A stretch of 64,000 nt of DNA from an uncultured Alphaproteobacteria bacterium. GTDB lineage: Bacteria > Pseudomonadota > Alphaproteobacteria > JALCBB01. Every line of letters begins with the position of its first letter. Position 1 is the first letter of the stretch. A program made the translations under genes and the position numbers. The DNA lies in contig OY279575.1 in the NCBI GenBank assembly GCA_958267355.1, positions 1,246,295-1,310,294 of the forward strand, read 5' to 3'. Under the pieces are notes generated by a model, which made no database searches, was not told where the DNA came from, and worked only from the letters and a program-made list of their open reading frames with translations. Below are positions 15,459 to 53,468 of this stretch, one piece after another.

Positions 15459-15534
15459 TCTCTGATGCTTCTAGGATACCGCGTCTGTGGAGCAAAAACA
15501 AACGCGGCATCAGCGTAGTGCCAGCGTGGCGTTA

Positions 15535-15800: not shown

Positions 15801-15874
15801 TCTCTTTGCTCTCTGTGCGTTATTCGCCTGCCGTTTGCGTGGCGGATACGACTGCTATACTCTGCAGCCTGCCT

Positions 15875-15947
15875 GTCCCCTTCGTCTAGAGGCCTAGGAC
15901 ACCGCCCTCTCACGGCGGCAACAGGGGTTCGAATCCCCTAGGGGACG
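15875..15947 (+). tRNA. tRNA-Glu (CTC)
   Basis: gtccccttcgtctagaggcctaggacaccgccctCTCacggcggcaacaggggttcgaatcccctaggggacg; near-identical to E. coli tRNA-Glu but with anticodon CTC. Confidence 0.85.
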
Positions 15948-15949
15948 CA

Positions 15950-16205
15950 ATACACCCTAGACGCACCTAAGCCACTCCCTAGATGCACCCTAAACGCACC
16001 TAAGCCACACCTAAGCCACACCCAAGCCACACTTTAAGCCCCACCCAAGCCACACCCAAGCCAAAGTACAAGCACTTTTTTCAAGCCTTTTTTCTGCCCC
16101 ATCTTGCTAAGCTCTAACCCTTGCTACGACTTAACCCTTGCTACGCCCTATCCTTGCTACGACTTAACTCTTGCTACAACTTAACCCTTGCTACGACTTA
16201 ACTCT
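15950..16205. repeat. two adjacent tandem repeats (cacctaagccacac units, then cccttgctacgacttaac 18-bp x5)
   Basis: direct reading. Confidence 0.8.
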
Positions 16206-17720
16206 GGCTACGAAATGCACTCCATCAGTTCGCTTTTGAATGGCACGGCAGTTGGCTCTGCGGACTCAACGGCTACTTCTCCTGTCTTTGACCCAGCGAC
16301 AGGAGTGCAGACAGCAGAGCTACACAACGCCAATGCAGCTCTGGTAGATAAAGCCGTGCAGAGCGCAAGCCAAGCAGCTCCTGCTTGGGGAGATCTGGCA
16401 ACAGCAAAGCGGGCTTCGCTGTTCTTTCGTCTTCACCAAATCTTAGACGCAAACCGCGACAGCATTGCGCGGGCGATTAGTGCCGAACACGGCAAAACCC
16501 ACGGAGATGCACTCGGCGAAGTCTCTCGTGGCATTGAAGTAGTAGAATTTGCCTGCGGACTTACCAAGCAAACCGCAGGCACTTTTTCGCCCCAAGCGGC
16601 AACGGGAATTGATGTCTATGACTTCCGCCAGCCGTTGGGTGTAGTGGCGGGGATAACGCCTTTTAACTTTCCGTTTATGGTGCCGATGTGGATGGCACCA
16701 ATGGCTTTGGCATGTGGCAATGCGTTTATCTTGAAGCCATCAGAACGCGACCCATCCGCTTCGTTGCTGTTGCATCAATATTTTATGGAAGCGGGCTTTC
16801 CGCCCGAAGTCTTGCAGGTGATCCACGGCGGCAAAGAAGCCGTGGATGCACTTCTCACACACGAGCAAATTGCCGCGGTAAGCTTTGTCGGCTCAACCGC
16901 GATTGCGCGTTATATCTACGAAACTGCAACCGCCCACGGCAAACGAGTCCAAGCCTTAGGCGGAGCAAAAAATCATATGGTGATCTTGCCCGATGCTGAT
17001 TTAGAAGCAGCGGCGAATGCACTTATGGGTGCGGCTTTTGGTTCAGCAGGTGAGCGTTGTATGGCAATTTCTGTTGCAGTACCCGTGGGCAAAGAAACCG
17101 CCGACAAGCTTGTCGCTCTACTCAAAGAAAAAATCCACGCTCTGAAGATTGCACCCGCCACAGACGAAACCGCCGAAATGGGCCCGTTGATTACAGCGGA
17201 AGCACAAAAGCGCGTACTAGACTTCATCTCCACAGGCGAAGAAGAAGGCGCGGAAGTGGTTTGCGATGGGCGGGGCTTTACTCCGCCCGCAGGATGCGAA
17301 CAGGGCTTTTTTGTCGGCGGAACTTTATTAGACAAGGTGACTCCCGCAATGCGGGTTTGGCAGGAAGAAATCTTCGGCCCTGTGCTTTCTGTTGTCCGTG
17401 CTGACTCGGCTGAAGAAGCGTTAGCTGTTGTCAATCAACATCCCTACGGCAACGGCACGGCACTTTTCACCCGCAACGGAGAAGCCGCACGGTCTTTTGT
17501 CCGTGGTGTGAAGGCAGGTATGGTCGGAATCAATGTGCCGATACCCGTGCCTGTCTCGTGGCACTCCTTCGGCGGCTGGAAAAGCTCGCTGTTCGGAGCC
17601 AACGCCATCTACGGCACAGAAGGGTTAAACTTTTACTCCAAGCTCAAGACCGTCACCGCCCGTTGGCATTCTGCTGAAAGTAAAGACGCAGCGCAGTTTC
17701 ACTTTCCGACTCTTGCTTAG
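16188..17720 (+). CDS. mmsA: CoA-acylating methylmalonate-semialdehyde dehydrogenase
   Basis: aldehyde dehydrogenase fold with FGSAGERCMA active site and GWKSSLFG C-terminal motif typical of MmsA; start could be the second ATG (MHSISS). Confidence 0.85.
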   Translation: MLRLNSGYEMHSISSLLNGTAVGSADSTATSPVFDPATGVQTAELHNANAALVDKAVQSASQAAPAWGDLATAKRASLFFRLHQILDANRDSIARAISAEHGKTHGDALGEVSRGIEVVEFACGLTKQTAGTFSPQAATGIDVYDFRQPLGVVAGITPFNFPFMVPMWMAPMALACGNAFILKPSERDPSASLLLHQYFMEAGFPPEVLQVIHGGKEAVDALLTHEQIAAVSFVGSTAIARYIYETATAHGKRVQALGGAKNHMVILPDADLEAAANALMGAAFGSAGERCMAISVAVPVGKETADKLVALLKEKIHALKIAPATDETAEMGPLITAEAQKRVLDFISTGEEEGAEVVCDGRGFTPPAGCEQGFFVGGTLLDKVTPAMRVWQEEIFGPVLSVVRADSAEEALAVVNQHPYGNGTALFTRNGEAARSFVRGVKAGMVGINVPIPVPVSWHSFGGWKSSLFGANAIYGTEGLNFYSKLKTVTARWHSAESKDAAQFHFPTLA

Positions 17721-17831: not shown

Positions 17832-19088
17832 ATGGCAACGAAACGCAAAGCCGCCAAAAGTACTTCTCCGTTCGGCAGGGGAGACGCGGCATTCCTACGC
17901 CAAGACCTTAGGGGAATAGCCCCCGAAATAGCCTATGCTGGCGCAACTTCGTTTTTGCGCAGACGCTATAGCCGTGATTTATCTGAAGCTGACCTTGCGG
18001 TGGTGGGTGTGCCGTATGACTTGGCGACGACAAATCGCTCGGGTGCGCGTCTTGGCCCGCGAGCTATTCGTGCGGCTTCGGCGATGATTGCCTGTTGGAC
18101 ACGCATCTACCCATGGGACTTTGACCCTATGCTCCGTATTGCTGTTGCCGATTGGGGCGATGTAGCTTTTGACCACGGACTGCCAGACAAGATTCCCGAC
18201 ACCATCACCCAGACCTTCCGTGAAATCTTGGCGAGCGACACGGCTACCCTTGCTTTGGGTGGAGATCATTTTATGACCTATCCGATCTTGCGTGCCTACG
18301 CCGAAAAGTATGGGGCTTTATCGTTGATTCACTTTGACGCGCATAGTGATACTTGGCGCGATAGTCATAACCGCATTGACCACGGCACGATGTTTTTTCA
18401 TGCGGCACGGGCGGGTTTGGTTGTGCCTGAGCGTTCGGCACAAATTGGCTTGCGGACATACAATCCTGAAAGCCACGGTTTTAATATCTTTGATGCACGC
18501 ACCGTCAAGCAAAGGGGAGCCAAAGTCGTAGCCCGTGAAGTGCGCAAGCTTGTCGGGCAGAACAAATGCTACCTGACTTTTGACATTGACTGCCTAGACC
18601 CTGCCTACGCACCTGGCACGGGCACACCTGAAATGGGCGGACTAACTAGCTACGAAGCCCAAGAACTGCTCTACGGCTTGCGGGGGATTAACTTGGTGGG
18701 AGCTGATGTGGTGGAAGTGGCTCCGCCTTTTGACCAGGCGGAAATTACGGCTTTGGCGGCGGCGACAATTGGTTTTATGCAGATTTCATTGTTTGCGGAA
18801 AATTTCCCTATGCACGAGCGTGAGAAGAGCCGTGCGCGGCACCTGGCTCGTGCGTCTGCCAAGGCTTCAAGGGGCAAGAAGTCAGCTACCAAGCGGAGTA
18901 TAAAAACAAAAAGAAAAACTAGGGTACAATCTGGAGTACAATCTAAGCCCAAGCCAAAAACCAAGCCAAAAACAAAAACCAAACCCAAGGCGAAAACAAA
19001 AGCCAAGGCAAAAACAAAGTCCAAGGCGAAAGCCAAGGCGAAAACAAAAGCCAAGGCAAAAGCCAAATCCAAGACTCGCAAAAGCTAG
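17832..19088 (+). CDS. speB: agmatinase/ureohydrolase family protein with a ~60-aa Lys/Ala/Pro-rich histone-H1-like C-terminal tail
   Basis: GGDHFMTYPILRAY...IHFDAHSDTW...DIDCLDPAYAPGTGTPEMGG arginase-family metal-binding motifs; tail KPKPKTKPKTKTKPKAKTKAKAKTKSKAKAKAKTKAKAKAKSKTRKS. Confidence 0.8.
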   Translation: MATKRKAAKSTSPFGRGDAAFLRQDLRGIAPEIAYAGATSFLRRRYSRDLSEADLAVVGVPYDLATTNRSGARLGPRAIRAASAMIACWTRIYPWDFDPMLRIAVADWGDVAFDHGLPDKIPDTITQTFREILASDTATLALGGDHFMTYPILRAYAEKYGALSLIHFDAHSDTWRDSHNRIDHGTMFFHAARAGLVVPERSAQIGLRTYNPESHGFNIFDARTVKQRGAKVVAREVRKLVGQNKCYLTFDIDCLDPAYAPGTGTPEMGGLTSYEAQELLYGLRGINLVGADVVEVAPPFDQAEITALAAATIGFMQISLFAENFPMHEREKSRARHLARASAKASRGKKSATKRSIKTKRKTRVQSGVQSKPKPKTKPKTKTKPKAKTKAKAKTKSKAKAKAKTKAKAKAKSKTRKS

Positions 19089-19090
19089 CT

Positions 19091-19567
19091 ATGACTTCTA
19101 CGACCCAAAAGCCATCGGGCAAAAAGCCTGCGCAGGAAGCCAGCCAAGACAGCGACGCGCCACCTTTCGGCGAAAGTGCGCGTTCTGTGGCGGAAGAATT
19201 TGTCGCTCGCGGAGCAGACGCACTATCAGGAGCGGCAGGTTTGTTGCAGGGTGTGGAACGTGAAAGCCGCACCCAGTTCCGCGATGTGAGTCGGCGTATG
19301 GCGCGTAGGCTTGAGCTGGTGGAAGAAGAAGAGTTTTTGGCGTTGCGCGAGCAGGTGCGAGATTTATCAAAGCGCGTGGCGGTGCTTGAGGGCAAAAAGC
19401 CCGCAAAAAAATCTACACGGAAAAAATCTACACTGAAAAAATCCACACGCAAAAAATCTACACGCAAGACTACACGCAAAAAATCTACACAAAAGAAATC
19501 CAACAAGCAGACAAGCCGCAAGAAGACAACGAAGAAAGCGAAGAAATCTTCAGCCAAAAGAAAATAA
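19091..19567 (+). CDS. UbiK/BMFP (YqiC) family accessory factor with a Lys-rich C-terminal tail
   Basis: core GLLQGVERESRTQFRDVSRRMARRLELVEEEEFLALREQVRDLSKRVAVLE resembles UbiK/BMFP coiled-coil proteins; followed by a KKSTRKKST repeat tail (~70 aa). Confidence 0.55.
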   Translation: MTSTTQKPSGKKPAQEASQDSDAPPFGESARSVAEEFVARGADALSGAAGLLQGVERESRTQFRDVSRRMARRLELVEEEEFLALREQVRDLSKRVAVLEGKKPAKKSTRKKSTLKKSTRKKSTRKTTRKKSTQKKSNKQTSRKKTTKKAKKSSAKRK

Positions 19568-19599: not shown

Positions 19600-20040
19600 A
19601 TGGGTGCAGACAACACATTAGAAATGGCGCAGACGCTAAACGCTGTGCCTGAGTTAATCTTCCGCATCTGGACAGAAGCCGAGCAGTTGCGTAGCTGGTT
19701 TGGCGGCACGGGGTTTGAAGTGGTGGAGGCAAGTGCCGATGCGCAGGTGGGTGGCAAGTGGTCTGTGACCCTGCGCGGAGCTGATAGCGGCAACGAGTGG
19801 CAAGCGGTGGGTGAATACCGCGAGCTGGACTCACCCCATCGCATTGCGATGACTATGGCGTGGTTGATGGGTGAGGGAAATCGCTCTGAAGAAAGTTTGC
19901 TGACTCTTGTGCTCACAGCCCAAGGCGACAAAACCGAAGTTGCGCTCACCCAGACGGGTTTTAATTCTCCTGAAATGCGCGACAGGCACCGCGATGGCTG
20001 GCAGTCTTCGTTTGCTCTGATGGAGAAAAACTTTACTTGA
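19600..20040 (+). CDS. SRPBCC/AHSA1-family protein
   Basis: ELIFRIWTEAEQLRSWFGG and overall fold pattern of Activator-of-Hsp90-ATPase-like SRPBCC proteins. Confidence 0.65.
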   Translation: MGADNTLEMAQTLNAVPELIFRIWTEAEQLRSWFGGTGFEVVEASADAQVGGKWSVTLRGADSGNEWQAVGEYRELDSPHRIAMTMAWLMGEGNRSEESLLTLVLTAQGDKTEVALTQTGFNSPEMRDRHRDGWQSSFALMEKNFT

Positions 20041-20225
20041 AGCTCTGTCAATTAAATCCCTGTCAATTAAACTTCCACTACTTAAACCCCTGATAATTAA
20101 AGCCCTGATAATTAAAGCCCGTTAATAAACTCGTGATAATTAAAGCCCGTTAATAAACCCCCGATAATTAAACTTCTATCAATTAAATCCCTGTTAATTA
20201 AACTCTGGTTAATTAAACTCCTATC
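20041..20225. repeat. AT-rich tandem repeat, ~13/26-bp unit (cctgataattaaagcccgttaataaac)
   Basis: direct reading; an AT-rich island in a GC-rich background. Confidence 0.85.
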
Positions 20226-20238
20226 GCTGAACTCCCCA

Positions 20239-29302: not shown

Positions 29303-31166
29303 TATGAACGACAGTTTGACTGAGACTTTATCTCCTGACACTGAAATTGACGGCGGAGAGAAATTCGCTGACCTTTTGAAAGAACATCAAATCACGGCGA
29401 CGGACGAGAGCTTAGAAGGCTCGGTCTTGCGTGGGCGGGTTGTGGCGTTTGATGGTGATTATGTTGTTGTGGATGTGGGCTTGAAGTCCGAGGGGCGAAT
29501 TCACGCGCATGAGTTTAAGCGTGAGGGAGAGCTTGAGGGTTTGAAGAAAGACGATATTGTTGAGGTATATCTTGACCGTTTAGAAGACTCGCAGGGGATT
29601 GTTGTTTTGTCGCGTGAGAAGGCGCGGCGTGAAGAGGCGTGGGCGCGTTTGGTGGATGTATATAACGCGGGCACTCCTGTTGAGGGAATTATTCAAAATC
29701 GGGTCAAGGGGGGGTATGTTGTGGATTTGAAGGGTGCGACGGGTTTTTTGCCGTCGAGTCAGGTTGATATTCGTCCGCAATCCAACATTACGCATTTGAT
29801 GGGTTCGCCCCAGCGGTTTAAGATTCTGAAGATGGACAGGAACCGTGGCAATCTTGTGGTTTCGCGGCGTTCGGTTTTGGAAGAAGAGCGGTCTGCGATG
29901 TTAGAAGACACGATGTCGCGGATTAAGGAAGGTGAAATTTTTACGGGCATTGTTAAGAATGTTACTGAATACGGAGCCTTTGTGGATTTGGGTGGTGTTG
30001 ATGGTTTATTGCATGTGACTGACATATCGTGGCAGCGGGTGAATCACCCGTCTGAGCATTTGCGGGTTGGACAGCAGGTTACGGTACAGATTACGCGTTA
30101 CAATCCTGAGACTCATCGTTTAAGCTTGGGTATGAAGCAGCTGGAAGCGGATCCGTGGCAGGGTACGGTGGAGCGTTTTCCTGTTGGTACGAAGCTGAAG
30201 GGGCGGGTTTCTAACATTACTGATTACGGGGCTTTTGTACAGCTGGAGCCGGGCATTGAGGGTTTGGTGCATATATCGGAGATGAGCTGGTCGCAGCGTA
30301 ATGTTCATCCGCGCAAGCTGGTATCGGTGAGTCAAGAAGTGGATGTGGTGGTCTTAGACATTGATGAAAAGCGGCGGCGGGTTTCGTTGGGTATGAAGCA
30401 GGCTTTACCGAATCCGTGGAATGAATTTGCCGAGCGTCATCCGACGGGAAGCGAAGTTACGGGCAAGGTGAAGAACATAACGAACTTTGGTTTGTTTATT
30501 GAGTTGGAGGAAGGTGTTGATGGGATGGTGCATTTTGCTGACTTGTCGTGGGACAAGCCTGGCGAAGAAGTCATCAAGGAATACCACCGCGGACAACAGG
30601 TTACTGCCAAGGTGACCAATGTGGATAGTGATCGCTGTCGTATATCGTTATCCATTAAGCACTTGACGGAAGATCCGTTTGAAGACGGAGATGAAAAGCA
30701 CAAGATTGGAGCGACAGTGACCTGTACGATTTCGTCGGTCTTTAGCGGCGGCGTGGAAGTCACGCTCGGAGACGAGAAGACTCCAGGGGTTATTAAAAAA
30801 GCCGAGTTGTCGCGTGAGCGTGATGGACAAGACCCCAATCAGTTTGCGGCGGGTGAGAAGGTGGATGCGAAGATTGTTTCGCGTGATAAGAAGGCGCGGC
30901 GTTTTGTTTTGTCTATTAAGCAGTTGCAGATTGAAGAAGCCGAGCAGGCGGTGGCGGATTACGGCTCTACCGAGTCGGGAGCGCAGCTGGGCGAGATTTT
31001 GGGTGCATCCAAGCTGGCGGCTCTAGCTCCGACAGGAGACGACACCGCCAAAGCCCCCAGCGAAGCCCCTGATGAAGCTCCTGTGGCTGATGACTCCCCC
31101 GAGCCCACAGACGCGCCCACAGAGCCAACAGACGAGCCCACAGAAGCCCCCAAAGAAGCCCAGTAG
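29303..31166 (+). CDS. rpsA: 30S ribosomal protein S1 with an acidic Pro/Thr/Glu-rich C-terminal extension
   Basis: repeated S1 domains (GSVLRGRVVAFDGDYVVVDVGLKSEGRIHAHEF..., GTKLKGRVSNITDYGAFVQLEPGIEGLVHISEMSW...); start at MNDSLTE rather than the 29136 ORF start. Confidence 0.92.
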
Positions 31167-31645
31167 CCCCCTTGCGGGGGAGCATTCATGCCAAGTCTTA
31201 GGAAACCAAGCAAGGCTTGGCTTCATAGCTTCCAGCACAGGCTAATTGTGTCTAAGCACCTTGCGGTGCGGCGATAGTGCCTAGCGTTAACTCTCTAATC
31301 TGCCCACGGACTTCATAGTTTTAGCCAAGGGCTAATTGTGTCTAAGCACCTTGCGGTGCGGCGATAGTGCCTAGCGTTAACTCTCTAATCTGCCCACGGA
31401 CTTCATAGTTTTAGCCAAGGGCTAATTGTGTCTAAGCACCTTGCGGTGCGGCGATAGTGCCTAGCGTTAACTCTCTAATCTGCCCACGGGCTTCATAGTT
31501 TTAGCCAAGGGCTAATTGTATCTAAAGGTCTTGCAGGGGGCTTCGGCTCAATTAGCCCTTCATTGAAACTATGGGGCTTAACAGTTGGTGGAAGCAAAAA
31601 GGGCTGGCACGAATGCCCCGCCGCAAGGCGGGGAAACCCGCAGAA
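31167..31645 (+). repeat. dispersed element copy: A-module fragment + ~80-bp B-module x3.5 + A-module, between rpsA and ihfB
   Basis: begins one base after the rpsA stop codon; B unit cttcatagttttagccaagggctaattgtgtctaagcaccttgcggtgcggcgatagtgcctagcgttaactctctaatctgcccacgg. Confidence 0.85.
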
Positions 31646-32946: not shown

Positions 32947-34281
32947 ATGAGCGAAGCGACAAAAACAAAAGCGCCATCTAACCCCCAACGAGCCGAAGAC
33001 TTTTGCGTTAAGGACTTATCCTTAGCCGAATGGGGCAGGGCTGAGATAACCCTAGCTGAGTCTGAAATGCCGGGCTTGATGGCGTTGCGGGCGGAACACG
33101 GGGCGAGTCGTCCGCTTGCGGGAGCGCGAATTATTGGCTGTCTGCATATGACGGTGCAGACTGCGGTCTTGATAGAGACTCTGACGCACTTGGGCGCGTC
33201 TGTTCGTTGGTCGTCGTGCAATGTTTTTTCGTCTCAAGACCATGCGGCGGCGGCGGTTGCCAAGGCAGGAGTCGCCGTCTTTGCGTGGAAAGGTATGAGC
33301 GAAGATGAATACTGGCGGGCGATAGACCAGACACTGGATGCGCCTGACGGTGGCAAGCCTGACTTGATTGTTGATGATGGCGGCGACTTAACGCAGGTTT
33401 TGCATCGTCCTGAACGGGCGGACTGGCTTGCGACTGTGCGCGGCATTTCTGAAGAGACGACAACGGGAGTCCTACGTTTAGAAGAAATGGCGCGCAAGGG
33501 TACACTTGGTTGTCCTGCGATTAATGTGAATGACTCGGTTACGAAGTCTAAGTTTGACAACCGCTACGGGGTGCGTGAATCGCTAGTAGATGGAATTCGC
33601 CGAGCGACGGACTTGATGTTGTCGGGCAAGGTGGCGATGGTCTGTGGCTTTGGCGATGTGGGCAAGGGCTCGGCGGAATCTTTGGCACGAGCGGGCTGTC
33701 GGGTTTTGGTGAGTGAGATAGATCCGATTTGCGCTTTACAGGCGGCGATGCAGGGGTATGAAGTGGTGACGATGGAAACGGCGGCTCCACGGGCGGACAT
33801 TTTTGTTACTGCGACGGGCAATCGTGATGTGATAACGGTTGATCATATGCGGGCGATGAAGGATTGTGCGGTGGTGTGCAACATCGGACATTTTGACAAC
33901 GAGATTCAAGTTGAAGGTTTGCGTAATTTCCGTTGGCAGAACATTAAGCCGCAAGTGGATCAAATCACCTTTCCTGACGACAAGCGGCTTTTACTGTTGT
34001 CTGAGGGCAGACTGGTGAATTTGGGCAATGCTACGGGACATCCTTCATTTGTGATGAGCACAAGCTTTGCCAATCAAGTTTTGGCACAGCTTGACCTATG
34101 GCAGAACGGAGCGAATTACGAGCGCAAGGTATATGTATTACCCAAACACCTAGACGAAAAGGTGGCGGCTTTGCACTTACAACACTTAGGAGCAGAACTT
34201 TCCACCTTGACTGACTCGCAAGCCACCTACCTCAACCTCCCCCCCCAAGGCCCCTTCAAACCCCCCCACTACCGCTACTAA
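32947..34281 (+). CDS. ahcY: adenosylhomocysteinase
   Basis: [28 protein letters not shown]...GDVGKGSA...[10 protein letters not shown]; 444 aa. Confidence 0.95.
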
Positions 34282-34282
34282 C

Positions 34283-34620
34283 CGCCTTGCGGCGGGGCAT
34301 TCATGCCAACCCTTGTTGCTTCCACCAACCGCCCCGCCCCATAGTTTCCAGTAAAAGGTTAATTGAGCCGAAGCCCCCTACGGGGGGAGCGTAAGATTAG
34401 GGGGATTAACTGGCTCCCGTTATGGAGATGAAGACCCACCGAGTGCCCGTAGGGCACGAAACCACCCCCCCTAACTGCCAAAGCTGTCTCCTGCACCCGT
34501 GCTGGACGCACGGGGCAGTCGCCCGCTTTGGTTTCCTGTTAACACCCCCTAGAGGCGAGACGTGGCGAAGCTTGCCGAGCCGTGCAAAAAGGCGGCGCAA
34601 GCGGGCGTAATAAACAATTG
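34283..34620 (-). repeat. dispersed element copy (rc orientation: A-module + C-module variant) between ahcY and the SSADH gene
   Basis: rc matches 13800-14021 (gagccagttaatccc...ggcttcggctcaatta...aactatgggg); begins 2 nt after the ahcY stop. Confidence 0.85.
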
Positions 34621-34626: not shown

Positions 34627-36090
34627 TTACAATCCCGCAAATTGGACGTATTTGGTTTCGGTGAATTCGTCCATGCCTTGGTGGGAGCCTTCGCGGCCTA
34701 AGCCCGACTCTTTGTAGCCGCCAAAGGGGGCGACTTCAGTTGTCATCACGCCCGCGTTCAGTGAGACCATTCCTGACTCTAGGGTTTCGCTAACGCGAAA
34801 GGCGCGGGCAAGGTCTTGGGTGAAGGCGTAAGCGGCGAGTCCGAATTCGGTGTCGTTCGCCATCGCCACGCCTTCGGCTTCGGTCGCAAACCGCACCACA
34901 GGAGCCACAGGACCAAACGTTTCTTCGCAAGCAAATTCCATCTTGGTGTTGGCGTTGGCAATCACTGTTGGCATATGAAAGCAGCCGCCTAAGGTGCCTT
35001 GGTCTCCGCCGCAGAGAATTTCTCCGCCCAAGGACTTAGCGTTTTCTACTTGGCGCAGTACTTTTTCTACCGCCGCTTGATTAATCAACGGACCCTGCTG
35101 CATGCCTTCTGTGAGTCCGTTGCCGACTTTGATCTGTGCCGCCTGCTCGGCAAGTCCGCTGATGTAGGAGTCGTAAATCTTGTCTTGAACAAAAATACGG
35201 TTCGGACAGATGCAAGTTTGTCCGCCGTTGCGAAACTTGCTTTGCATCGTGCCTGTTATCGCTGTCTCTAGGTCAGCATCGTCAAAGACCAACAAGGGCG
35301 CATTGCCGCCTAACTCCATCGCGGTTTTTTTGACTGTGCTGGCACATTGGCGCATTAACTCCTTGCCCACCGCTGTTGAACCCGTAAAGGAAAAAGCCCG
35401 TATCCGCGCATCTTCGGTCAAGACCTTGCCAACTTCGCCCGCCCGCTTGCTCGGGACAATGTTAAACACACCCGCAGGAATGCCCGCTTCGTCCGCCAAG
35501 ACCGCCAAAGCCAAAGCCGATAGCGGAGTCTCCGCCGCTGGCTTCGCCACCAGAGAGCAACCACTGCCCAAAATCGCCGCCGCCTTGCGCGTCAGCATCG
35601 CCGACGGAAAGTTCCACGGCGTTATCACGCCCACAGGGCCAATAGACTGACGAAACACCAACAGACGCGCATCGGGGCGGTGGCTCGGAATCACATCTCC
35701 GTAGATGCGTCTGCCTTCTTCTGCACCCCACTCTATATAGGCAGCACTCAACGCCGTTTCTAAGCGCGCTTCCGCCAAGACCTTGCCGTTTTCCAAAGTC
35801 ATAATGCGGGCTAAGTCTTCTTGATGCTGAAGTATCAAACCCGCCCAACGGCGCATTAACACACTGCGCTCTTTGGCGGTCAGGCGGCTCCAGCTGTGCC
35901 AAGCTTCAGTCGCCGCCGATACCGCGGCTTCTGTGTCGCTTGCGCCCAGATCTGCGACTTCCGCCAAGGTTTCACCCGTGGCAGGATTTTTGACCGCAAA
36001 GCGTGCGTCTCCTGCCCGCCACTTGCCGCCCAGATAGCCGCTGGTTGGGGCTAGCTCTGCCCTGTCTAAGATTTCTAAGCCTTGCCCCAT
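34627..36090 (-). CDS. gabD: NAD(P)-dependent succinate-semialdehyde dehydrogenase
   Basis: aldehyde dehydrogenase family with ELGGNAP and GQTCICPNRIFVQ motifs and a GabD-like N-terminus (ILDRAELAPTSGYLGGKW); start at the internal ATG 36090, the longer ORF N-terminus is not homologous. Confidence 0.8.
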   Translation of the reverse strand: MGQGLEILDRAELAPTSGYLGGKWRAGDARFAVKNPATGETLAEVADLGASDTEAAVSAATEAWHSWSRLTAKERSVLMRRWAGLILQHQEDLARIMTLENGKVLAEARLETALSAAYIEWGAEEGRRIYGDVIPSHRPDARLLVFRQSIGPVGVITPWNFPSAMLTRKAAAILGSGCSLVAKPAAETPLSALALAVLADEAGIPAGVFNIVPSKRAGEVGKVLTEDARIRAFSFTGSTAVGKELMRQCASTVKKTAMELGGNAPLLVFDDADLETAITGTMQSKFRNGGQTCICPNRIFVQDKIYDSYISGLAEQAAQIKVGNGLTEGMQQGPLINQAAVEKVLRQVENAKSLGGEILCGGDQGTLGGCFHMPTVIANANTKMEFACEETFGPVAPVVRFATEAEGVAMANDTEFGLAAYAFTQDLARAFRVSETLESGMVSLNAGVMTTEVAPFGGYKESGLGREGSHQGMDEFTETKYVQFAGL

Positions 36091-36202
36091 GGGGAGTCTC
36101 CTTGCCTTGATATTTGGTTCTTGCACTCCGTCGTTGAGAGGTATAGCATAAGGCAAAAGCTCCGCTTTGTCGCTAGACAAGGCCCACAACCCAAAAGGAG
36201 GC

Positions 36203-36376
36203 ACCATGACTTCAGAAGTACACCTCGCCGCTTTACGCCGCAAACACAGCGGATTAGAAGAAAAGATCACCCTAGAAACGCAACGTCCGCAGCCTGATAC
36301 AGTACTTTTGAGCGAACTGAAAAAACAAAAACTGGTTATCAAAGAAGAAATAGAAAAGCTCTCCGCTTCTGCGTAA
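36203..36376 (+). CDS. DUF465 (YdcH-like) small protein
   Basis: MTSEVHLAALRRKHSGLEEKI...LSELKKQKLVIKEEIEKL is the typical DUF465 pattern. Confidence 0.6.
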   Translation, partial: TMTSEVHLAALRRKHSGLEEKITLETQRPQPDTVLLSELKKQKLVIKEEIEKLSASA

Positions 36377-36850
36377 GCTCCGCCGCCGCCCCGCCAGGCG
36401 GCTTTTTTAATTGACGCCAAGGTGCTTTGGCTCAATTAGCCCTTCCGTTGAAACTATGGGGCTTAACGGCTGGTGGGGGAGCTAAGGGCTGGCACAGATG
36501 CCCCGCCGCAAGGTGCTTGGCTCAATTAGCCTGTTAGCAAAACTATGGGGCTTAACAGTTGGTGGGGGAGCTAAGGGCTGGCATGAATGCCGCACCGCAA
36601 GGTGCTTGGCTTCATAGCTTCCAGCACAGGCTAATTGTGTCTAAGCACCTTGCGGTGCGGCGATAGTGCCTAGCGTTAACTCTCTAATCTGCCCACGGGC
36701 TTCATAGTTTTAGCCAAGGGCTAATTGTGTCTAAAGGTCTTATAGGGGGCTTCGGCTCAATTGGCCTGTTAGCAAAACTATGGGGCTTAACGGCTGGTGG
36801 GAGAGTTAAGGGCTGGCACGAATGCTCCACCGCAAGGTGCCGGTGGTGAA
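36377..36850 (+). repeat. cluster of dispersed-element modules (A x3, B x2)
   Basis: ggcttcggctcaatt...aactatggggcttaacggctggtgg...ggctggcacgaatgc...caccgcaaggtg reiterated; the last ~45 bp overlap the 3' end of the TPR ORF on the opposite strand. Confidence 0.85.
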
Positions 36851-37903
36851 GTGTTTCCAGGCGATGCGGATGAAGCGCCAGGCGGCGGTGAGGTAACTTT
36901 TCTCCTCGTAGGACAAGATTGCCAAGCCGACATAGATGCGTATTTGTCCTGCTTTGTCTTCCATGGATTGGTAGAGCGTCAAGGATTGGTTGTACCACTC
37001 TTCGGCGCTCCCGAAGTCGCCGCGTTTGACGGAAATATTACCGAGATGGTTATAGACCGTTGCGAGTCCGATTTGTTGTTCTTGGTCGTTGACGGACTCG
37101 TATTGCTCAATTGCGCGGTCGTAGAAGGAAATGGCACGCGACCACTCGCGGCGGATTTGCGCAATCTCGCCAAGATGGCTGTAGCTGGAGGCTAATCCGA
37201 GGCGATTGTTTAGGTCTTCGCTCAGTGCTAGGGCTTGTTCGTAGAAGCTATGGGCTTCGTTTAGGTCCTTGTTGATCTGTCCTTGGCTGCCGAATTTTCT
37301 GTAAATTTTGGCGGCTCCGTCTGCACCGCCAATGATATCTTTGCTGGCGAGGTATCCGTAGAAGTAGCGCGAGATTTTGCCGATGGCGTTTTGCACGCCG
37401 CGGGCGACGGCGACATATCCGAGGGCATTGTAGGTGTGGATGAGTCCTGCTGTATCGCCCAGCGACTCGCGGACGGTGAGCGATTGTTTGTACCAGTCGC
37501 TCGCGGATTCAAAATCGCCGCGCAGTTGGGCGATGTTGCCGAGGTTATGGTAGGTGTCGGCGACTCCGTGTTGGTCTCCGAGGTGTTTGCGGGTAGCGAG
37601 CGAGTCGTTGTAGTAGGTTTCGGCTTTGTCTAGGTCTCCTTTATTGGCGGCGAGTGCTCCGAGATTATTGTAGGTGGCGGCGCGGATGCGCAAGTTTTCT
37701 TCGTCCTGCAGGAGTTCTAAGATTTGCAGGTAGCTATCGCGAGCTTTGTTTGGCTTGTTCTCCTCGCGGAATTCGCGGGCGGCTTGGAACAGCTCGTCTA
37801 TGGTTTGCGGCTTCTCCTGCGCCTGTGCTGGACTTGCCAACACAAGTCCTGTGCTTAGAAGCAAACAGAAAAACGAACAAGCGATCTTTTGGACGCGGTG
37901 CAT
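36806..37903 (-). CDS. secreted TPR-repeat protein
   Basis: signal peptide MHRVQKIACSFFCLLLSTGLVLASPAQA; ~7 TPR units (YNNLGALAANKGDLDKAETYY...); the C-terminal ~15 codons are encoded by the repeat element. Confidence 0.65.
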   Translation of the reverse strand: MHRVQKIACSFFCLLLSTGLVLASPAQAQEKPQTIDELFQAAREFREENKPNKARDSYLQILELLQDEENLRIRAATYNNLGALAANKGDLDKAETYYNDSLATRKHLGDQHGVADTYHNLGNIAQLRGDFESASDWYKQSLTVRESLGDTAGLIHTYNALGYVAVARGVQNAIGKISRYFYGYLASKDIIGGADGAAKIYRKFGSQGQINKDLNEAHSFYEQALALSEDLNNRLGLASSYSHLGEIAQIRREWSRAISFYDRAIEQYESVNDQEQQIGLATVYNHLGNISVKRGDFGSAEEWYNQSLTLYQSMEDKAGQIRIYVGLAILSYEEKSYLTAAWRFIRIAWKHFTTGTLRWSIRASP

Positions 37904-38034
37904 ACTTCCCCCGCTTTGTACTCTCCATCAAGAGCGGCAATTATACCACAACCCTAAGTATACATAAATCCTATAAAAATTCCCCCCCGCGGCTTCATCA
38001 CCCCCGCTCTTGCGGGCAATTTGCCACATCTGGC

Positions 38035-38365
38035 TTGTCTTCCAATTACCCTGATTTCTAAGCCGCAGAAAAAGAGGTTAGGCTTGGGCTCTACTTCAAC
38101 ATTTAATTTACGCCCGCTTGCGCGGGCTCTTGCCGCCTACGGCGGCGTCCGCTTCGCTCCGCTCGTTTCACTCCGCTACGCTCGCGCTCGTGCCCTACGG
38201 GCACTCGGTGGGTCTTCGTCTCCACAATAGGAGCCAGATCATCACACTAACCTCACGCTCCCCCCGCAAGGGGGCTTCGGCTCAATTGGCCTGTTAGCAA
38301 AACTATGGGGCTTAACAGCTGGTGGAAGCAACAAGGCTTGGCACGAATGCCGCACCGCAAGGTGC
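38035..38365 (+). repeat. dispersed element copy (C+A modules) between the TPR gene and etfA
   Basis: near-colinear with 13700-14021; ends (…caccgcaaggtg) 2 nt before the etfA stop codon on the opposite strand. Confidence 0.85.
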
Positions 38366-38366
38366 G

Positions 38367-39317
38367 CTAGGGGTCTAGGGCTTTGGATAGGGCGGGGAGG
38401 GCTTCGAATAGGTCAGCGACTAGGCCGTAGTCGGCGACTTGGAAGATCGGTGCATCAGGGTCGTTGTTAATCGCCGCTATTACTTTTGAGTCTTTCATTC
38501 CCGCCAAGTGTTGAATCGCACCCGATATGCCCACCGCAATATATAAATCAGGAGCCACCACCTTGCCCGTCTGTCCCACCTGATATTCGTTGGGAACATA
38601 GCCAGCATCCACCGCCGCTCGCGACGCACCCACCGCCGCTCCAAGCTTGTCAGCCACCGATTCAAGTAAGGCAAAGTGCTCGCCGCTTTGCATACCGCGT
38701 CCGCCCGAGATGACAATGCGAGCGTTCGTTAGCTCGGGGCGTTCGCTCTTGGAAACTTCGTCCGCCGTCCAAGACGACAAGTCCGACTCTCCTGCCTGAC
38801 CCGCCTGACTCGCCACTTCTTCTAAAGTCGCACTTCCGCCTTCGCTCGCCACCGCTTCAAACGAAGTCGCACGTACCGTCAGCAGCTTTTTCGCATCCCT
38901 TGAGCGCACCGTCGCCAAAGCATTCCCCGCATACAACGGACGAACAAAAGTATCCGCCGCAACAATTTCTAACACCTCGGTTATCGGTTGCACATCAAGC
39001 AATGCCGCCACACGCGGAAGCAAGTTCTTCGCAAAACTCCCCACAGGCGCAAGAACTGCATCGTAGTCCGCCGCTAACTCAGCAACAAACGGAGCCGCCG
39101 CTTCAGCACTCGCATGCTGCCAAGACTCCGCACAGACAAGCCGCACCTTCGCCACACCCATAACCCGTGCCGCCAAATCAGCAACCGCTCTGGATGACTC
39201 ACCTCCCATAACCAACAAATCACAAGTCGCGGCAAACTTGCCCGCCGCCGCCACTGCACTCAAAGTCGCGGGCTTTAAAGACTCTCCGTCGTGGTCTGCC
39301 AATACCAATACGCGCAT
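38367..39317 (-). CDS. etfA: electron transfer flavoprotein alpha subunit
   Basis: [11 protein letters not shown]...C-terminal FAD-binding block [37 protein letters not shown]. Confidence 0.92.
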
Positions 39318-43025: not shown

Positions 43026-43754
43026 ATGTCGCTATACAGCAATCTTCGTCGTCGTCGTCGTCGTCGCCTTTTGGTCTTGGCGCGGCGGTTTCTGGTGCTT
43101 GGAGTTTTGGCGGCGGGCTTTGCTTTTGTCTGGGATCTCGGACGACAGAGCGAGTCGGGGCGGGCTTTGACGGTAACGCGCCAGCTGGAAGAACAGGCGG
43201 CGCGTTTGGCGACTTTGGCGGAGCAACAGGCGAAGGCTTTGGCGGACAATGAGTTGTTGCAGCGTGAGATTTACAGCTTGCGGGTGCAGCTGCGGCGTGA
43301 GGGACAGCTTGGCGATCTGTCGGGGGTGATGGAAGAGGCAAGGCGCAAGGTGGCGGAAGGGGTTGCAATCTCGCGCTTGGAAGCGCGGATTCGTTCAACG
43401 GCTCCGTTGCTGACCTGTGGCGAAGCGGTGGAGCGAAGTATTTTGGTGCGCACGGGTACTTCGCGGCACGGAGATGAAACTGCAACTTTTGCCAACGGAG
43501 CCATTGCCATCAGCTTGACGGCACAGGATGCGAATGGAGTTTTGCCTGAACGTTATCATCCTGCGCATAGTTTGCGGCTTGTGGCGGCACAGGCGGGGCA
43601 GGTGCCGTATGTTGCGGAGGGCAGGCTTCCGCATTCTTTTGCTTTGACCCGCGAAGAAGCGGAGTATCGGTTTTTGGTTTTTGCGCCTTTGGGTAGTCGT
43701 AGTTCGGGTACGGCGATTGTGCGGGGCGAGCGTTGTTTAGAGGAAAAGCAGTAG
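43026..43754 (+). CDS. hypothetical membrane-anchored protein with a poly-Arg N-terminus
   Basis: MSLYSNLRRRRRRRLLVLARRFLVLGVLAAGFAFVW (single TM), then a coiled-coil-like and conserved-looking C-terminal domain; no family recognised. Confidence 0.4.
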   Translation: MSLYSNLRRRRRRRLLVLARRFLVLGVLAAGFAFVWDLGRQSESGRALTVTRQLEEQAARLATLAEQQAKALADNELLQREIYSLRVQLRREGQLGDLSGVMEEARRKVAEGVAISRLEARIRSTAPLLTCGEAVERSILVRTGTSRHGDETATFANGAIAISLTAQDANGVLPERYHPAHSLRLVAAQAGQVPYVAEGRLPHSFALTREEAEYRFLVFAPLGSRSSGTAIVRGERCLEEKQ

Positions 43755-43915
43755 GGTTTTTTGGCTTGTTGTTTTTTAGCTTGTTATTTTTAGGTTTGGA
43801 GTTTTTGGGCTTAGTGTTTTTGGGCTTGGAGTTTTTGGGCTTGATGTTTTTGGGCTTAGTGTTTTTGGGCTTAGTGTTTTTGGGTTTAGTGTTTTCAAGC
43901 TTGGTGCGTATAAGT
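43755..43915. repeat. tandem repeat, 15-bp unit (gtttttgggcttagt) x~10
   Basis: direct reading. Confidence 0.85.
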
Positions 43916-44782
43916 TTAGTACTTCCAAGCTAGGTGCAGGGCGGCGATACCGCCGCCGAGTCGTTCGCTGACGACCGAGCGAAATCCTGCGGCTTTGAGC
44001 CACTGGCTTACGGTTTCGGCGTCGGCGAAGGTTTCAATGGACTCCACCAGATAGCGGTATGCGGCTTCGTTGTCGGCGATTTGTTTGCCTAAGGCGGGAA
44101 TGAGTCGCCGCGACAGGCGGCGATAGAGTTCTGAAAAAATCGGCGTATCGGGCGGGGAAAATTCCAGCACGGCGAGTCGTCCGCCTGAGTCCAAGACGCG
44201 GAAGGCTTCGCTTAAGGCTTGTCTGGGGTGCGTCATATTGCGCAAGCCGAAGGCAAGGGTAATTGCGGCAAAGGAGTTGTCAGCACACTTTAAGTCTTCG
44301 GCGTTGGCGACTTGCCAGGTGATAGCGTGGGGTGGGATTCCGTGGGTGAAGCTTCGGTTTTGTCCGTGGTGTAGCATTTCGGCGGTTAGGTCAGCGACGG
44401 TGATGATGGCTTTGCCGTTTGTGGCTTTGTATAGGCGGAAGGCGATATCTCCTGTGCCGCCTGCTAGGTCTAGGCAGTGTTCGCCCGCTCGCGGAGCCAC
44501 GCGAGCGACGAGTGCATCTTTCCAGACCTTGTGGAGTCCGAGCGACATTAAGTCATTCATTTGGTCATAGGAGTCTGCGACTTCGGCGAAGAGCTGGCGC
44601 ACGCGGTTGGTTTTGTCGTGGGCGTTTATGGTTTCGGCTCCGAAGGAAACCTGTGGCGGACTTTCTTGTCGGCGAGCAGTGCGATGGGCAGTGCGACGTA
44701 CGGGGTGGCGTTCAGGACGGCGTTGGGAGCGGCGTTCAGGGCGGCTTGCGGGGCGAAGGCGATTTTTTGTGGTCTGTTGCAT
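43916..44782 (-). CDS. ubiE: ubiquinone/menaquinone biosynthesis C-methyltransferase UbiE
   Basis: VSFGAETINAHDKTNRVRQLFAEVADSYDQMNDLMSLGLHKVWKD...LDLAGGTGDIAF; the Arg-rich N-terminal 45 aa are of uncertain translation. Confidence 0.85.
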   Translation of the reverse strand: MQQTTKNRLRPASRPERRSQRRPERHPVRRTAHRTARRQESPPQVSFGAETINAHDKTNRVRQLFAEVADSYDQMNDLMSLGLHKVWKDALVARVAPRAGEHCLDLAGGTGDIAFRLYKATNGKAIITVADLTAEMLHHGQNRSFTHGIPPHAITWQVANAEDLKCADNSFAAITLAFGLRNMTHPRQALSEAFRVLDSGGRLAVLEFSPPDTPIFSELYRRLSRRLIPALGKQIADNEAAYRYLVESIETFADAETVSQWLKAAGFRSVVSERLGGGIAALHLAWKY

Positions 44783-44799: not shown

Positions 44800-44990
44800 C
44801 TTTGCTGTTGCTTTGTAAGTTGCCTTGCTGTTGCTCTGTACATTGCTTTGGCTCTGTACATTGCTTTAGCTCTGTATATTGCTTTGGCTCTGTACATTGC
44901 TTTAGCTCTGTATATTGCTTTGGCTCTGTAGATTGCTTTGGCTCTGTATATTGCTTTGCAGTTGCTTGCTACTGGGAGTCATAGTCTTAT
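44800..44990. repeat. tandem repeat, 18-bp unit (gctctgtacattgctttg) x~10
   Basis: direct reading. Confidence 0.85.
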
Positions 44991-45913: not shown

Positions 45914-46345
45914 ATGGCTTTTCGGCGAATCTTGTGGCTTGCGGTGCTGGTGCTGGTGGCGGTTTCTGTTGCCGAGCGGCGGGCGGGTTTTGTTTCTGGG
46001 TCTGTGGAAGGGCAGAGTCTGCAGGCGGCTTGGGCACAGACTGCGACGATTGCGACCACTGACTTTTTGTCTATTCTGCCTGAAATTCCTTTGCCCGCAG
46101 GTTTTGTGGAGTACACAGAAGAAGCGATTGTCTTTGACAAGCCCGCTGGACGAATTGCTGAAGCGGCGGCGTTTGGTGCGACTGATGCGGAAGTGGTGCG
46201 GCAATTCTACGCTGACACCTTGCCTTCGCTTGGCTGGCAGGAGTCGGGTGAGCTGATGTGGTTGCGCGACAGCGAAGAGCTTAGATTAGAAATTCTTGCT
46301 GAAGAAGCGGCGACACAGGTGCGTTTTTTTCTCCGCCCGCACTAG
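45914..46345 (+). CDS. hypothetical secreted protein
   Basis: signal-peptide-like N-terminus MAFRRILWLAVLVLVAVSVA; no recognisable family; 143 aa. Confidence 0.4.
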   Translation: MAFRRILWLAVLVLVAVSVAERRAGFVSGSVEGQSLQAAWAQTATIATTDFLSILPEIPLPAGFVEYTEEAIVFDKPAGRIAEAAAFGATDAEVVRQFYADTLPSLGWQESGELMWLRDSEELRLEILAEEAATQVRFFLRPH

Positions 46346-46762
46346 CACCTTGCGGTGGCACCTTGCGGTGCGGCATTCGTGCCAAGCCTTGGCTCTTCCA
46401 CCAGCCGTTAAGCCCCATAGTTTCAATAAGGGGTTAATTGAGCCAAAGCCCCCTGCAAGACCTTTAGACACAATTAGCCTGTGCTGAAAGCTATGAAGCC
46501 AAGCCTTGCTTGGTTTCCTAACACTTGGCATGAATGCTCCCCCGCAAGGGGGCTTGCGGTGCGGCATCAATGCCAGGCGTTAACCCTCTAATCTGCTTAA
46601 AAGCCCCATAGTTTCAAACATAGGCTACTTGTGTTTAAGCACCTTACAGGGGGCTAGACAAAATTAGCCTGTCCCTAAAACTATGAAGCCAAACCTTGCT
46701 TGGTTTCCTAACACTTGGCATGAATGCTCCCCCGCAAGGGGGCTTGCGGGGGTGCATCGGTG
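46346..46762 (-). repeat. cluster of dispersed-element modules in rc orientation (A x3, B x2); inverted partner of 36377-36850
   Basis: rc of 46441-46505 matches 36600-36760; begins right after the 45914..46345 stop and ends at the stop of the cold-shock gene. Confidence 0.85.
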
Positions 46763-47392
46763 CTAGAGTTCTGAGCCAGCGTCGCCTTTTTCGTCTATGC
46801 CTATGGCGGGAGCTTCTTCGCTTGCTGGGTCTGTGTTGCTGCTGCTGTCGCCGCTGGGGGCTTGCGAGGAAAGCTCAACTGTTTCGGCGGACAAGCCGCG
46901 CATTCCTTGTCGTACTTGCATGACCAAGCGATCGTCGGGGTTAACCGACAGGATTCCGCAACGGGTTAGCACGCGGCCGGGCAGGAAGATATCGGGTCCG
47001 CCGTCGTCGGGGGTGACGAAGCCGAAGCCTTTGCGGGCGTTGTAGAACTTGACTGTGCCTTCAACTGTGTGGAGTGGCCCACTTGGAGCGCGTGGTACGC
47101 CGCTGGCACTACCGCTACCGTATTGTGGTTCGCCTTCGCTTTCTACGGAGATTAAACGCTCTACCTGTACTCCGCGTGGGCTTTGCGATAGGGTTATGGT
47201 GATTTCTGCTCCTGGGTGCAGGGTTGTGACACCTGCCGCCGATAGGGCCGAGATATGCAAGAACGCGTCTTGTCCTTTGCTGGCGATTTCTACGAAGCCG
47301 AAGCCCTTGGTGGGATTAAACCACTTAACTTTGCCTGCGACTTGCTCTGCGTCTTCTGACGGAGCGGGTGAAGAGTCGTTTTCTTCTTGCAT
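46763..47392 (-). CDS. cold-shock-domain protein with two CSDs
   Basis: GKVKWFNPTKGFGFVEI... and GTVKFYNARKGFGFVTPDDGGPDIFLP: two RNP1-containing cold-shock domains. Confidence 0.8.
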   Translation of the reverse strand: MQEENDSSPAPSEDAEQVAGKVKWFNPTKGFGFVEIASKGQDAFLHISALSAAGVTTLHPGAEITITLSQSPRGVQVERLISVESEGEPQYGSGSASGVPRAPSGPLHTVEGTVKFYNARKGFGFVTPDDGGPDIFLPGRVLTRCGILSVNPDDRLVMQVRQGMRGLSAETVELSSQAPSGDSSSNTDPASEEAPAIGIDEKGDAGSEL

Positions 47393-53391: not shown

Positions 53392-53468
53392 TGGTCGGGG
53401 CGACTGGGTTCGAACCAGTGACCTCCTGCTCCCAAAGCAGGCGCGCTACCAGGCTGCGCCACGCCCCG
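53392..53468 (-). tRNA. tRNA-Pro (TGG)
   Basis: rc: cggggcg-tg-gcgcagcctggtagcgc-g-cctgc-tTTGGGa-gcagg-aggtc-actggttcgaacccagt-cgccccg-a-CCA; anticodon UGG, G37. Confidence 0.85.

Follow-up and report, generated by a model that had tools for sequence, protein, structure and literature searches.

Covarying fixed-loop hairpins at the ends and junctions of a mosaic intergenic repeat in an uncultured alphaproteobacterium

Short hairpins with a fixed TTGC loop recur between the genes of a 64,000-nucleotide stretch (hereafter the window) from the genome of an uncultured Alphaproteobacteria bacterium (GenBank assembly GCA_958267355.1, contig OY279575.1, positions 1,246,295 to 1,310,294), and pairing in these hairpins is supported as constrained. 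Our preferred explanation, to which we give an even chance, is that they are the palindromes at the ends and junctions of a mosaic intergenic repeat, specific to the lineage and of the REP, BIME or BOX kind, and that their pairing is kept as a DNA hairpin. The family is new and the phenomenon is of a known kind. The initial annotation of the window had argued that covariation in the stems implies transcribed RNA structures, or DNA cruciforms, and not inert repeats. Constrained pairing stands, and because pairing is kept as the stem changes these are not arbitrary repeats; on balance, a selfish mosaic repeat constrained as a DNA hairpin is likelier than selection at the RNA level.

Perfect hairpins with a stem of at least 5 bp and a 4-nt loop number 90 in the window compared to 54 ± 7 in shuffled sequences, and the excess is almost wholly due to two loop sequences, TTGC (n = 11) and GCAA (n = 9). 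These 20 hairpins (mean 0.5 and maximum 2 in 50 shuffles) all fall within eight intergenic repeat loci, and every motif cited in the initial annotation was found in the sequence at its place (Table 1). The string GGCANNNNTGCC occurs in 10 copies against 2.2 expected, a number that none of 100 shuffles reached. Window and sister strains together provide 41 distinct hairpin contexts. The relatives compared all derive from the same long-read metagenome sample: sister strains at 97-99% nucleotide identity (L026, L027, L030, L032, L036, L037, L039 and L040), species B (AhcY 95%, NDUS4 86%; L041/42 and L046-49), species C (AhcY 88%; L043), species D (AhcY 83%; L044/45) and a further relative (NDUS4 74%; L050/51). 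The nearest named AdoHcyase homologues, from the Rhodospirillales-like genera Tistlia and Aquibaculum, are 77% identical.

A scan of the window with a profile built from six copies (nhmmer) recovered 18 units of about 90 nt, which form three subfamilies once aligned in one orientation. Alpha (9 copies) reads stem-TTGC-stem, GGCATTCRTGCC, …CCACCAGCYGTTAAGCCCCATAGTTT…AATTGAGCCGAAG; beta (5 copies) reads GCACC-TTGC-GGTGC, GGCGATAGTGCC, …; and gamma (3-4 copies) reads CCCCC-TTGC-GGGGG, AGCATTCATGCC, …. Unit ends and junctions are marked by a short perfect G+C-rich palindrome with the fixed loop C-TTGC-G, or GCAA on the opposite strand (hp1), beside which lies a second hairpin, GGCA-N4-TGCC (hp2). 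Some units stand alone, others form tandem arrays or face each other head-to-head, and entire spacers thereby become large imperfect palindromes. Two composites (31167-31633 and 46346-46762) start with stem-TTGC-stem and hp2 and end with an inverted copy; hp1 and hp2 stand in opposite orientation at the two ends as terminal inverted repeats. A longer composite of modules D, E and C with an alpha unit is present at 13663-14024 and 38036-38366, and modules D and G occur at 53072-53394; each module boundary in these loci is again a short perfect G+C-rich palindrome. A further recurrent hairpin, here class 2, reads TTTAC-G, 6-bp stem, TTGC, stem, C-TTT.

Pattern searches outside this lineage recovered no relative of the repeat. 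A conserved 17-mer gave just 24 single chance matches across 185,579 species genomes, a 26-nt pattern had no match in JGI metagenomes, a degenerate pattern for hp1 plus hp2 gave two chance matches only, and plasmids and phages gave no match.

The claim that stem sequence changes while pairing is kept held when copies were aligned and tested. Among 22 distinct, gap-free 35-nt terminal contexts that include hp2 (window and sister strains), 97% of hp1 pairs are Watson-Crick. Three of the five pairs are invariant and two change on both sides: the outer one is C-G in 12 contexts, G-C in 8 and unpaired in 2, and the middle one is A-U in 11, G-C in 6, C-G in 4 and unpaired in 1. The covariation score (0.249) was reached by none of 500 shuffles (0.086 ± 0.018) and did not exceed 0.06 with slid partners. 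The neighbouring hp2 has, as proposed, an invariant stem and a variable loop (TTCG, TTCA, TCTG, TCAA and ATAG on the TTGC strand), and shows no covariation. For class 2 we aligned 15 contexts from three species, two imperfect ones being included on purpose; 93% of cells are paired, and four of the six pairs change on both sides (C-G/G-C 10:3; 7:4 plus three A-U; 9:3 plus one U-A; 8:7). The score is 0.59 compared to 0.145 in shuffles, and again none of 500 reached it. Neither class shows one-sided (wobble) changes: C-G/G-C flips dominate, and no G-U or G-T pair is found among the 110 hp1 pair-cells or the 90 class-2 cells. Compensatory evolution of RNA mostly passes through wobble pairs, hence this pattern is atypical of it.

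Kinship of the copies inflates covariation counts. All gamma units bear CCCCC and all beta units GCACC, as expected of descent from master copies, and since hp1 stem type follows subfamily in this way, independent double changes are few, an estimated 3-5. The evidence from class 2 is stronger because the same flanks bear different stems. For instance, module G ('tttgggcgcatctg…') is preceded by three different perfect stems (GCACGC/GCGTGC, GCGCCC/GGGCGC and GGCGGC/GCCGCC), and after module D ('…catttaatttac') comes either GCACCC/GGGTGC or GCCCGC/GCGGGC. Stems in fact vary more than the conserved modules beside them: between copies W53363 and L037:3557, 4 of 12 stem positions are different, compared to only 2 of 34 in the 3' flank. 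The internal palindromes of the two D-E-C-alpha composites differ by compensated changes or outright replacement, the hairpin GCTCGCG-CAAG-CGCGAGC of one giving way wholly to GCCGCC-TAC-GGCGGC in the other. Between strains L030 and L032 (~98% identity), the orthologous 12-bp palindrome CCTAGGGGCTCC-TTGC-GGAGCCCCTAGG shows a compensated change of A-T to G-C. This palindrome (L030 16927-16955, L032 about 15013-15041) lies within a strain-variable TPR/NYN island and is followed in both strains by another hairpin, CCTGCGG-CCGAAC-CCGCAGG. The distal hp1 of the rpsA-ihfB array (31616-31633) is one C-G pair shorter in L030 and L032.

Imperfect hairpins are informative too. Some are hybrids, pairing GCACC with GGCGG (CCGCC-GCAA-GGTGC at about 36503-36516, inside the 36414-36841 array), GCACC with GGGGG (L036:10733) or GCCCGC with GCCGCC (34591-34606); the arms of the last match two different perfect stems elsewhere. 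Others are halves: 'TAG CACC TTGC ctga' after the MerR-family gene, 'TAG GCAA GGCG' after the window's NDUS4 gene, and 'GCACCC TTGY GG' running directly into cgcg where module D ends. Hybrids and halves show that each arm moves together with its flanking module, the breakpoints falling at the loop.

The outer hairpin of a locus starts exactly at the end of the neighbouring gene, with TTGC on the sense strand of that gene in 9 of 9 window cases. The stop is followed without spacing by CCCCC at rpsA (TAG), CCGCC at ahcY (TAA), CACC at orf143 (TAG) and CGCACC at etfA (TAG); csp and the MerR-family gene have TAG then CACC, both decayed. The window's AhcY shares its C-terminus (…YRY) with that of species B, C and D, which indicates that the normal gene end is preserved. 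At the TPR gene (36806-37903, minus strand), the only unit in strain L030 has TAG flush against CGCACC; the window has a deletion of 7 nt, by which the reading frame runs on into the last unit of the 36414-36841 array, which contains the final 11 codons and the stop. At both tRNA-Pro genes the hairpin comes right after the discriminator base, and CCA is part of the outer stem (CCACC-TTGC-GGTGG), the outer three pairs of the hp1 at 14011-14024 supplying the CCA of tRNA-Pro(ggg). Outer hairpins are preceded by GTAG, CTAG, TTAG or CTAA, internal junctions by TAAG or CAAG, and tRNA-adjacent copies by CCGA. The initial annotation had a GNRA-type loop being kept; the loop is indeed fixed, but the strand of the upstream gene reads UUGC and not GCAA. 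This exact, polar abutment to stop codons and tRNA ends is the most unusual feature of the family.

The two tRNA-Pro genes (14022-14098, 53392-53468) carry CCA, and tRNA-Glu(ctc) and tRNA-Arg(tct) (15875-15948, 53994-54069) encode none. We considered CCA as a mark of RNA-mediated insertion and rejected it: the distant relative L050 encodes CCA on tRNA-Pro with no hairpin, so that the CCA of the window genes is probably native, and a species-B strain, L046, has the hairpin and no CCA.

Repeat loci differ between strains and species. In the rpsA-ihfB array a gamma unit is followed by three beta units in the window, two in L030 and five in L032, and then by alpha; the csp-orf143 spacer has four internal architectures in five strains, both outer ends being identical; and upstream of tRNA-Arg a 10-nt spacer in the window corresponds to 320-360 nt of modules in three strains. 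Relative to L032, species B and species C, the window and L030 carry the aldehyde dehydrogenase-DUF465 segment (34627-36376) in inverted orientation, and each of its breakpoints is occupied by a repeat locus (34282-34470 and 36414-36841). Three genes that L032, species B and species C have between ahcY and DUF465 are missing in the window. The orthologous unit next to ahcY shows differences between strains far above the 2% background and resembles other copies, which suggests that it was converted from them.

In species B the homologue of the terminal module is a hairpin with a TGC triloop followed by AGCRWTAATGCATTAGG, with bodies of about 90 nt that are evidently homologous, though their divergence puts them out of reach of the nhmmer profile. 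Stems in this homologue are CAAC, CGCC, CCCC(C) and GCACC; the set shared with the window is CACC, CGCC and CCCC, with CAAC additional in species B. The hairpin stands 0 nt after the NDUS4 stop and right after the tRNA-Pro discriminator base (CCAAC-TGC-GTTGG), and one strain has CGCC-TGC-GGCG at tRNA-Pro, without CCA. There are no hairpins at rpsA or etfA in this species, and ahcY has only a remnant unit. Hairpin sites thus differ between the two species, suggesting that positions are recent and species-specific, which insertion fits better than an ancient regulatory signal.

Some strains have 3.4 kb inserted beside etfA. The insert codes for two TPR_12 proteins of 361 aa, both paralogues of the TPR gene, as well as for an NYN-domain protein, so that the copy number of TPR paralogues varies between strains. 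Having no transposase, the insert was rejected as an autonomous parent element. The place of the window's 37903-38367 segment, with its D-E-C-alpha composite, is taken in other strains by L030 15919-19325, L036 18913-20169 and L040 10521-11903.

If the hairpins are DNA structures of a mobile repeat, their pairing would be kept since the hairpin, most likely in single-stranded DNA, is needed by the machinery that mobilises or recombines the repeat. This could be a REP-associated (RAYT) or an IS200/IS605-type HUH enzyme, or another structure-specific enzyme, and only lineages with intact hairpins would then leave copies. One or two stem pairs would not be read by sequence and would be free to change as long as they remain Watson-Crick, while exchange at the common CTTGCG core would shuffle modules and whole hairpins. 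Effects of a 3' hairpin right after the stop on flanking transcripts would be a likely consequence, and not a demonstrated reason for conservation.

Known repeats offer parallels for most of these features. REPs are 20-50-nt palindromes that follow a conserved tetranucleotide, usually GTAG, occur in BIMEs and are recognised by RAYT as single-stranded DNA; their 'group 3' includes 5-bp perfect palindromes with a 4-nt loop, some loop positions of which tolerate no change (PMC8266576). In REPIN hairpins, thought to act as single-stranded DNA, compensatory changes are frequent (PMC3116915). The present family shares with REP, BIME and REPIN sequences the short extragenic G+C-rich palindromes, inverted pairs, mosaics and location at gene 3' ends, with group 3 the 5-bp perfect palindrome and 4-nt loop, and with REPINs the compensatory changes; the (G/C)TAG-like tetranucleotide just 5' of the outer hairpins may be a further likeness. 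Unlike REPs, it has stems that differ within one family, palindromes that punctuate tandem units of about 90 nt, and hairpins flush (0 nt) with stops and tRNA ends in fixed polarity. Pneumococcal BOX elements are boxA-boxBn-boxC composites in which the number of boxB modules is strain-variable, and SPRITE is a terminator-like dispersed repeat (PMC3049150). Like BOX, our repeat has two mutually inverted end modules, a tandem middle module that varies by strain (2, 3 or 5 beta units), extensive predicted folding and an uncertain mobilising enzyme (PMC3049150); the likeness is one of architecture, in an unrelated host phylum, and the elements differ from BOX by being G+C-rich, with a fixed-loop mini-hairpin at every junction and exact stop abutment. 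Class 2 recalls SPRITE in being a dispersed small terminator-like repeat often found downstream of genes, yet its hypervariable stem of 6-7 bp, with 3-6 T after it, contrasts with the 18-bp duplex and long U-rich tract of SPRITE, and several class-2 copies run antisense to the gene beside them.

A last parallel comes from Neisseria, whose mosaics (dRS3-bounded units) and Correia elements are 50-150 bp blocks with short inverted-repeat bounds, associated with rearrangements. The present loci resemble them as intergenic blocks each bounded by a short inverted repeat. They differ in that the Neisserial boundary repeats have a conserved sequence, at which phages integrate, and in that insertion of Correia elements duplicates a TA target.

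Several observations weigh against a mobile DNA hairpin. The TAG or TAA just ahead of the hairpin belongs to the host gene as its stop codon, and is therefore not countable as a REP-type GTAG. Gene tables of the window and fetched loci, about 5% of the genome, list no transposase, RAYT or integrase family. No consistent target-site duplication or TA target was seen at the inspected borders, for which reason a mariner/IS630-like TA target was rejected. No clean insertion footprint could be defined either: filled and empty alleles at NDUS4/tRNA-Arg and ahcY are not simple insertions, and at two loci they diverge from the third base of the last sense codon (taT TGA vs taC TAA; caT TAG vs caC TAA). 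The strict TTGC sense polarity and 0-nt spacing fit a strand-specific RNA role as well, and in 5-bp stems a G-U pair may be too weak for RNA too.

An RNA function is an unlikely but credible alternative. The hairpins would be transcribed as 3'-end structures after a stop or tRNA, and serve for exonuclease protection, as a processing site or, for class 2, in termination. The flush junctions and the sense-strand reading of the loop (UUGC), a polarity that recurs in the sister species, would be explained, and covariation is significant in both hairpin classes. As RNA, hp1 and hp2 fold as predicted (-13 to -14.5 kcal/mol); the sense-strand hp2 loop is most often UUCG, and hp1 shows GCAA on the opposite strand. 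UUCG and GCAA loops belong to stable tetraloop classes. Class-2 stems are followed by 3-6 T, and the hairpin is sense-oriented downstream of genes in most cases in species B and C. The exclusive use of Watson-Crick pairs and the dominance of flips nevertheless argue against it, as does the lack of consistent strand bias: RNA minimum free energy of the eight loci gave the sense strand no consistent advantage, differences in inverted units were 17 G-U-type to 8 A-C-type in beta and 9 to 10 in gamma (neither significant), and we rejected a strand-specific RNA signal on these counts. Several class-2 hairpins are on the antisense strand of the gene beside them. Neither hp1 nor hp2 is followed by a T-run or called by the terminator scan, so that an intrinsic terminator was rejected for them, and terminator-like sites in the region are as frequent as in shuffles (30 compared to 26). 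Furthermore, sites are not kept at orthologous genes between the window's species (A) and species B, and the decayed hairpins at the MerR-family gene and csp persist, stably inherited. At the Rfam gathering score only tRNAs matched, and a relaxed threshold added one chance miRNA match (E = 0.1). A sigma-54 promoter was also considered and rejected: TGGCAC in hp2 resembles a -24 box, but no TTGC lies at the required spacing.

It is also conceivable, though quite improbable, that there is no structural selection and that stems change in concert at the DNA level, either with replication correcting quasi-palindromes on an intrastrand template, or with a whole hairpin overwritten by short-patch conversion from another copy, for which the common loop and flanks would give the homology; this mechanism is proposed on the basis of what is known of quasi-palindrome mutagenesis. 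Such copying would produce flips and no G-T pairs, and it would account for hypervariable stems within conserved flanks, the wholesale replacement of a composite hairpin, the compensated change in the 12-bp stem of two nearly identical strains and the seemingly converted unit at ahcY. However, the stems CACC, CGCC and CCCC recur in two species with diverged loops and modules, and the loop and its closing C-G pair are invariant; both point to constraint, and hybrid hairpins persist uncorrected. Finally, sites of another known recombination system, such as integron attC or prophage and genomic-island attachment at tRNA 3' ends, would match hairpins that begin at stops and tRNA 3' ends with conserved structure, variable sequence and breakpoints at the loop, but are highly improbable, and integron attC identity was rejected: neighbours are housekeeping genes in conserved order (rpsA, ihfB, ahcY, etfA) and not cassettes, none of the fetched loci has an integrase, borders have no RYYYAAC/GTTRRRY core sites, and the elements are tandem arrays of 90-nt units.

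The abutment itself raises a further idea, which we consider rather doubtful: units that end in hairpins may be positioned by a mechanism recognising the 3' gene boundary in a fixed orientation, possibly strand-specific transposition of single-stranded DNA with a TAR-like target, or a path via RNA 3' ends. If true, the hairpins could later serve the host as 3'-end hairpins whose loop (UUGC, or UGC in the sister species) would be read by a dedicated factor, and a variable stem with a fixed loop would amount to a recognition code of structure and not of sequence.

Table 1. Repeat loci, hairpins and tandem repeats. Positions are those of the window unless a strain handle is given; 'cited' marks motifs named in the initial annotation.
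Feature	Position	Strand	Remarks
Half hairpin 'CACC TTGC'	13585-13595	+	directly after MerR-family gene stop TAG (13582-13584); right arm missing
Composite of modules D, E, C and alpha unit	13663-14024	+	short palindromes between: 13769-13784 GCACCC-TTGC-GGGTGC; 13789-13806; 13851-13865; 13922-13935
hp1 CCACC-GCAA-GGTGG	14011-14024		cited; abuts discriminator base of tRNA-Pro(ggg) (14025-14098, minus strand)
Array gamma + 3 x beta + alpha	31167-31633	+	fills rpsA-ihfB spacer; last unit inverted
First hairpin of array, CCCCC-TTGC-GGGGG	31167-31180		0 nt after rpsA stop TAG (31164-31166)
GCACC-TTGC-GGTGC of 'module B' units	31256, 31346, 31436, 36645		cited
hp2 GGCA-CGAA-TGCC of alpha unit	31606-31617	+	cited; stem invariant, loop variable across copies
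hp1 CCCCGCC-GCAA-GGCGGGG	31616-31633	+	cited; distal end of rpsA-ihfB array
Inverted alpha unit, module C, palindrome GTGCCC-GTA-GGGCAC	34282-34470	+	left breakpoint of inverted segment
hp1 CCGCC-TTGC-GGCGG	34282-34295		cited; 0 nt after ahcY stop TAA (34279-34281)
Imperfect class-2 hairpin GCCCGC-TTGC-GCCGCC, then TTTTT	34591-34606	-	downstream of aldehyde dehydrogenase gene
Array alpha, alpha, partial gamma, beta, alpha	36414-36841	+	right breakpoint of inverted segment
Second D-E-C-alpha composite copy	38036-38366	+	
hp1 CGCACC-GCAA-GGTGCG	38351-38366		cited; abuts etfA stop (38367-38369, minus strand)
Palindromic array between convergent orf143 and csp	46346-46762	+	orf143 stop TAG 46343-46345, then CACC-TTGC-GGTG and GCACC-TTGC-GGTGC; csp stop 46763-46765, minus strand
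Hairpin CCCCC-GCAA-GGGGG	46539-46552 and 46729-46742		cited
Two adjacent hp1 (GCACC-TTGC-GGTGC, CCGCC-TTGC-GGCGG), hp2, inverted solo alpha unit	52781-52898	+	
Locus downstream of tRNA-Pro(tgg) (53395-53468)	53072-53394	-	module G with more perfect palindromes; module D ending in half hairpin GCACCC-TTGT-GG (~53072-53085)
Class-2 hairpin GCACGC-TTGC-GCGTGC	53354-53369	-	in locus 53072-53394
hp1 CCACC-TTGC-GGTGG	53381-53394	-	cited as CCACC-GCAA-GGTGG; in locus 53072-53394
Species B repeats	L047 6300-6640, 7606-7830; L048 6300-6600, 7540-7740; L046 7270-7440		
Short-period tandem repeats, first set	363-556, 3909-4421, 6738-6915, 14156-14318, 15509-15841, 15957-16217, 18931-19502		
Short-period tandem repeats, second set	20034-20237, 43752-43931, 44807-44976, 58967-59236, 61160-61280, 63094-63536		

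The gene content of the window is alphaproteobacterial (cmk-rpsA-ihfB, FYDLN_acid, DUF465, NDUS4, ETF and ETF-QO). Its AdoHcyase, GroEL and IHF-beta proteins have exact matches on ena:ERZ19433661:hifiasm.ptg000096c, a contig of 1,859,045 bp in the long-read metagenome, with the suffix 'c' that hifiasm gives to circular contigs. Almost all 2-kb bins have a strongly positive GC skew, and the cumulative curve rises throughout, which places the window on one replichore with the plus strand leading. Among 56 called genes 26 stop with TAG, 19 with TAA and 11 with TGA; TAG as the commonest stop is unusual for an alphaproteobacterium of 55% G+C, and TAG stops are numerous at the loci of species B (7 of 17) and species D (8 of 19) too. 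Very many short-period tandem repeats (11-30 nt) lie between or inside genes (Table 1). Those inside genes encode K/P/A-rich tails, with Pfam HC2 on EndoIII and malic enzyme and a long tail on ribosomal protein S1, and because of such repeats gene lengths differ between strains. Downstream of a DUF192 gene a 241-bp segment is duplicated in tandem (52181-52662, 98% identity). Two strains carry a restriction-modification pair, an NgoFVII-type endonuclease and a C5 DNA methylase, between groEL and MT-A70 (L026 11717-13763, L027 11716-13762), which is absent at window positions 2879-2944.

The repeat adds one lineage-specific family to the many REP-, BIME- and BOX-like repeats, in whose hairpins compensatory change has already been described. 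What is worth keeping is the exactness and polarity with which hairpins adjoin stop codons and the 3' end of tRNA-Pro in two sister species, and the natural experiment of a fixed loop with a free stem in which only Watson-Crick pairs are used. Equally worth keeping is the setting, a single long-read metagenome in which several strains and sister species are represented by complete or near-complete genomes, which would let insertion, array expansion, hairpin turnover and element-mediated inversion be tracked at population scale.

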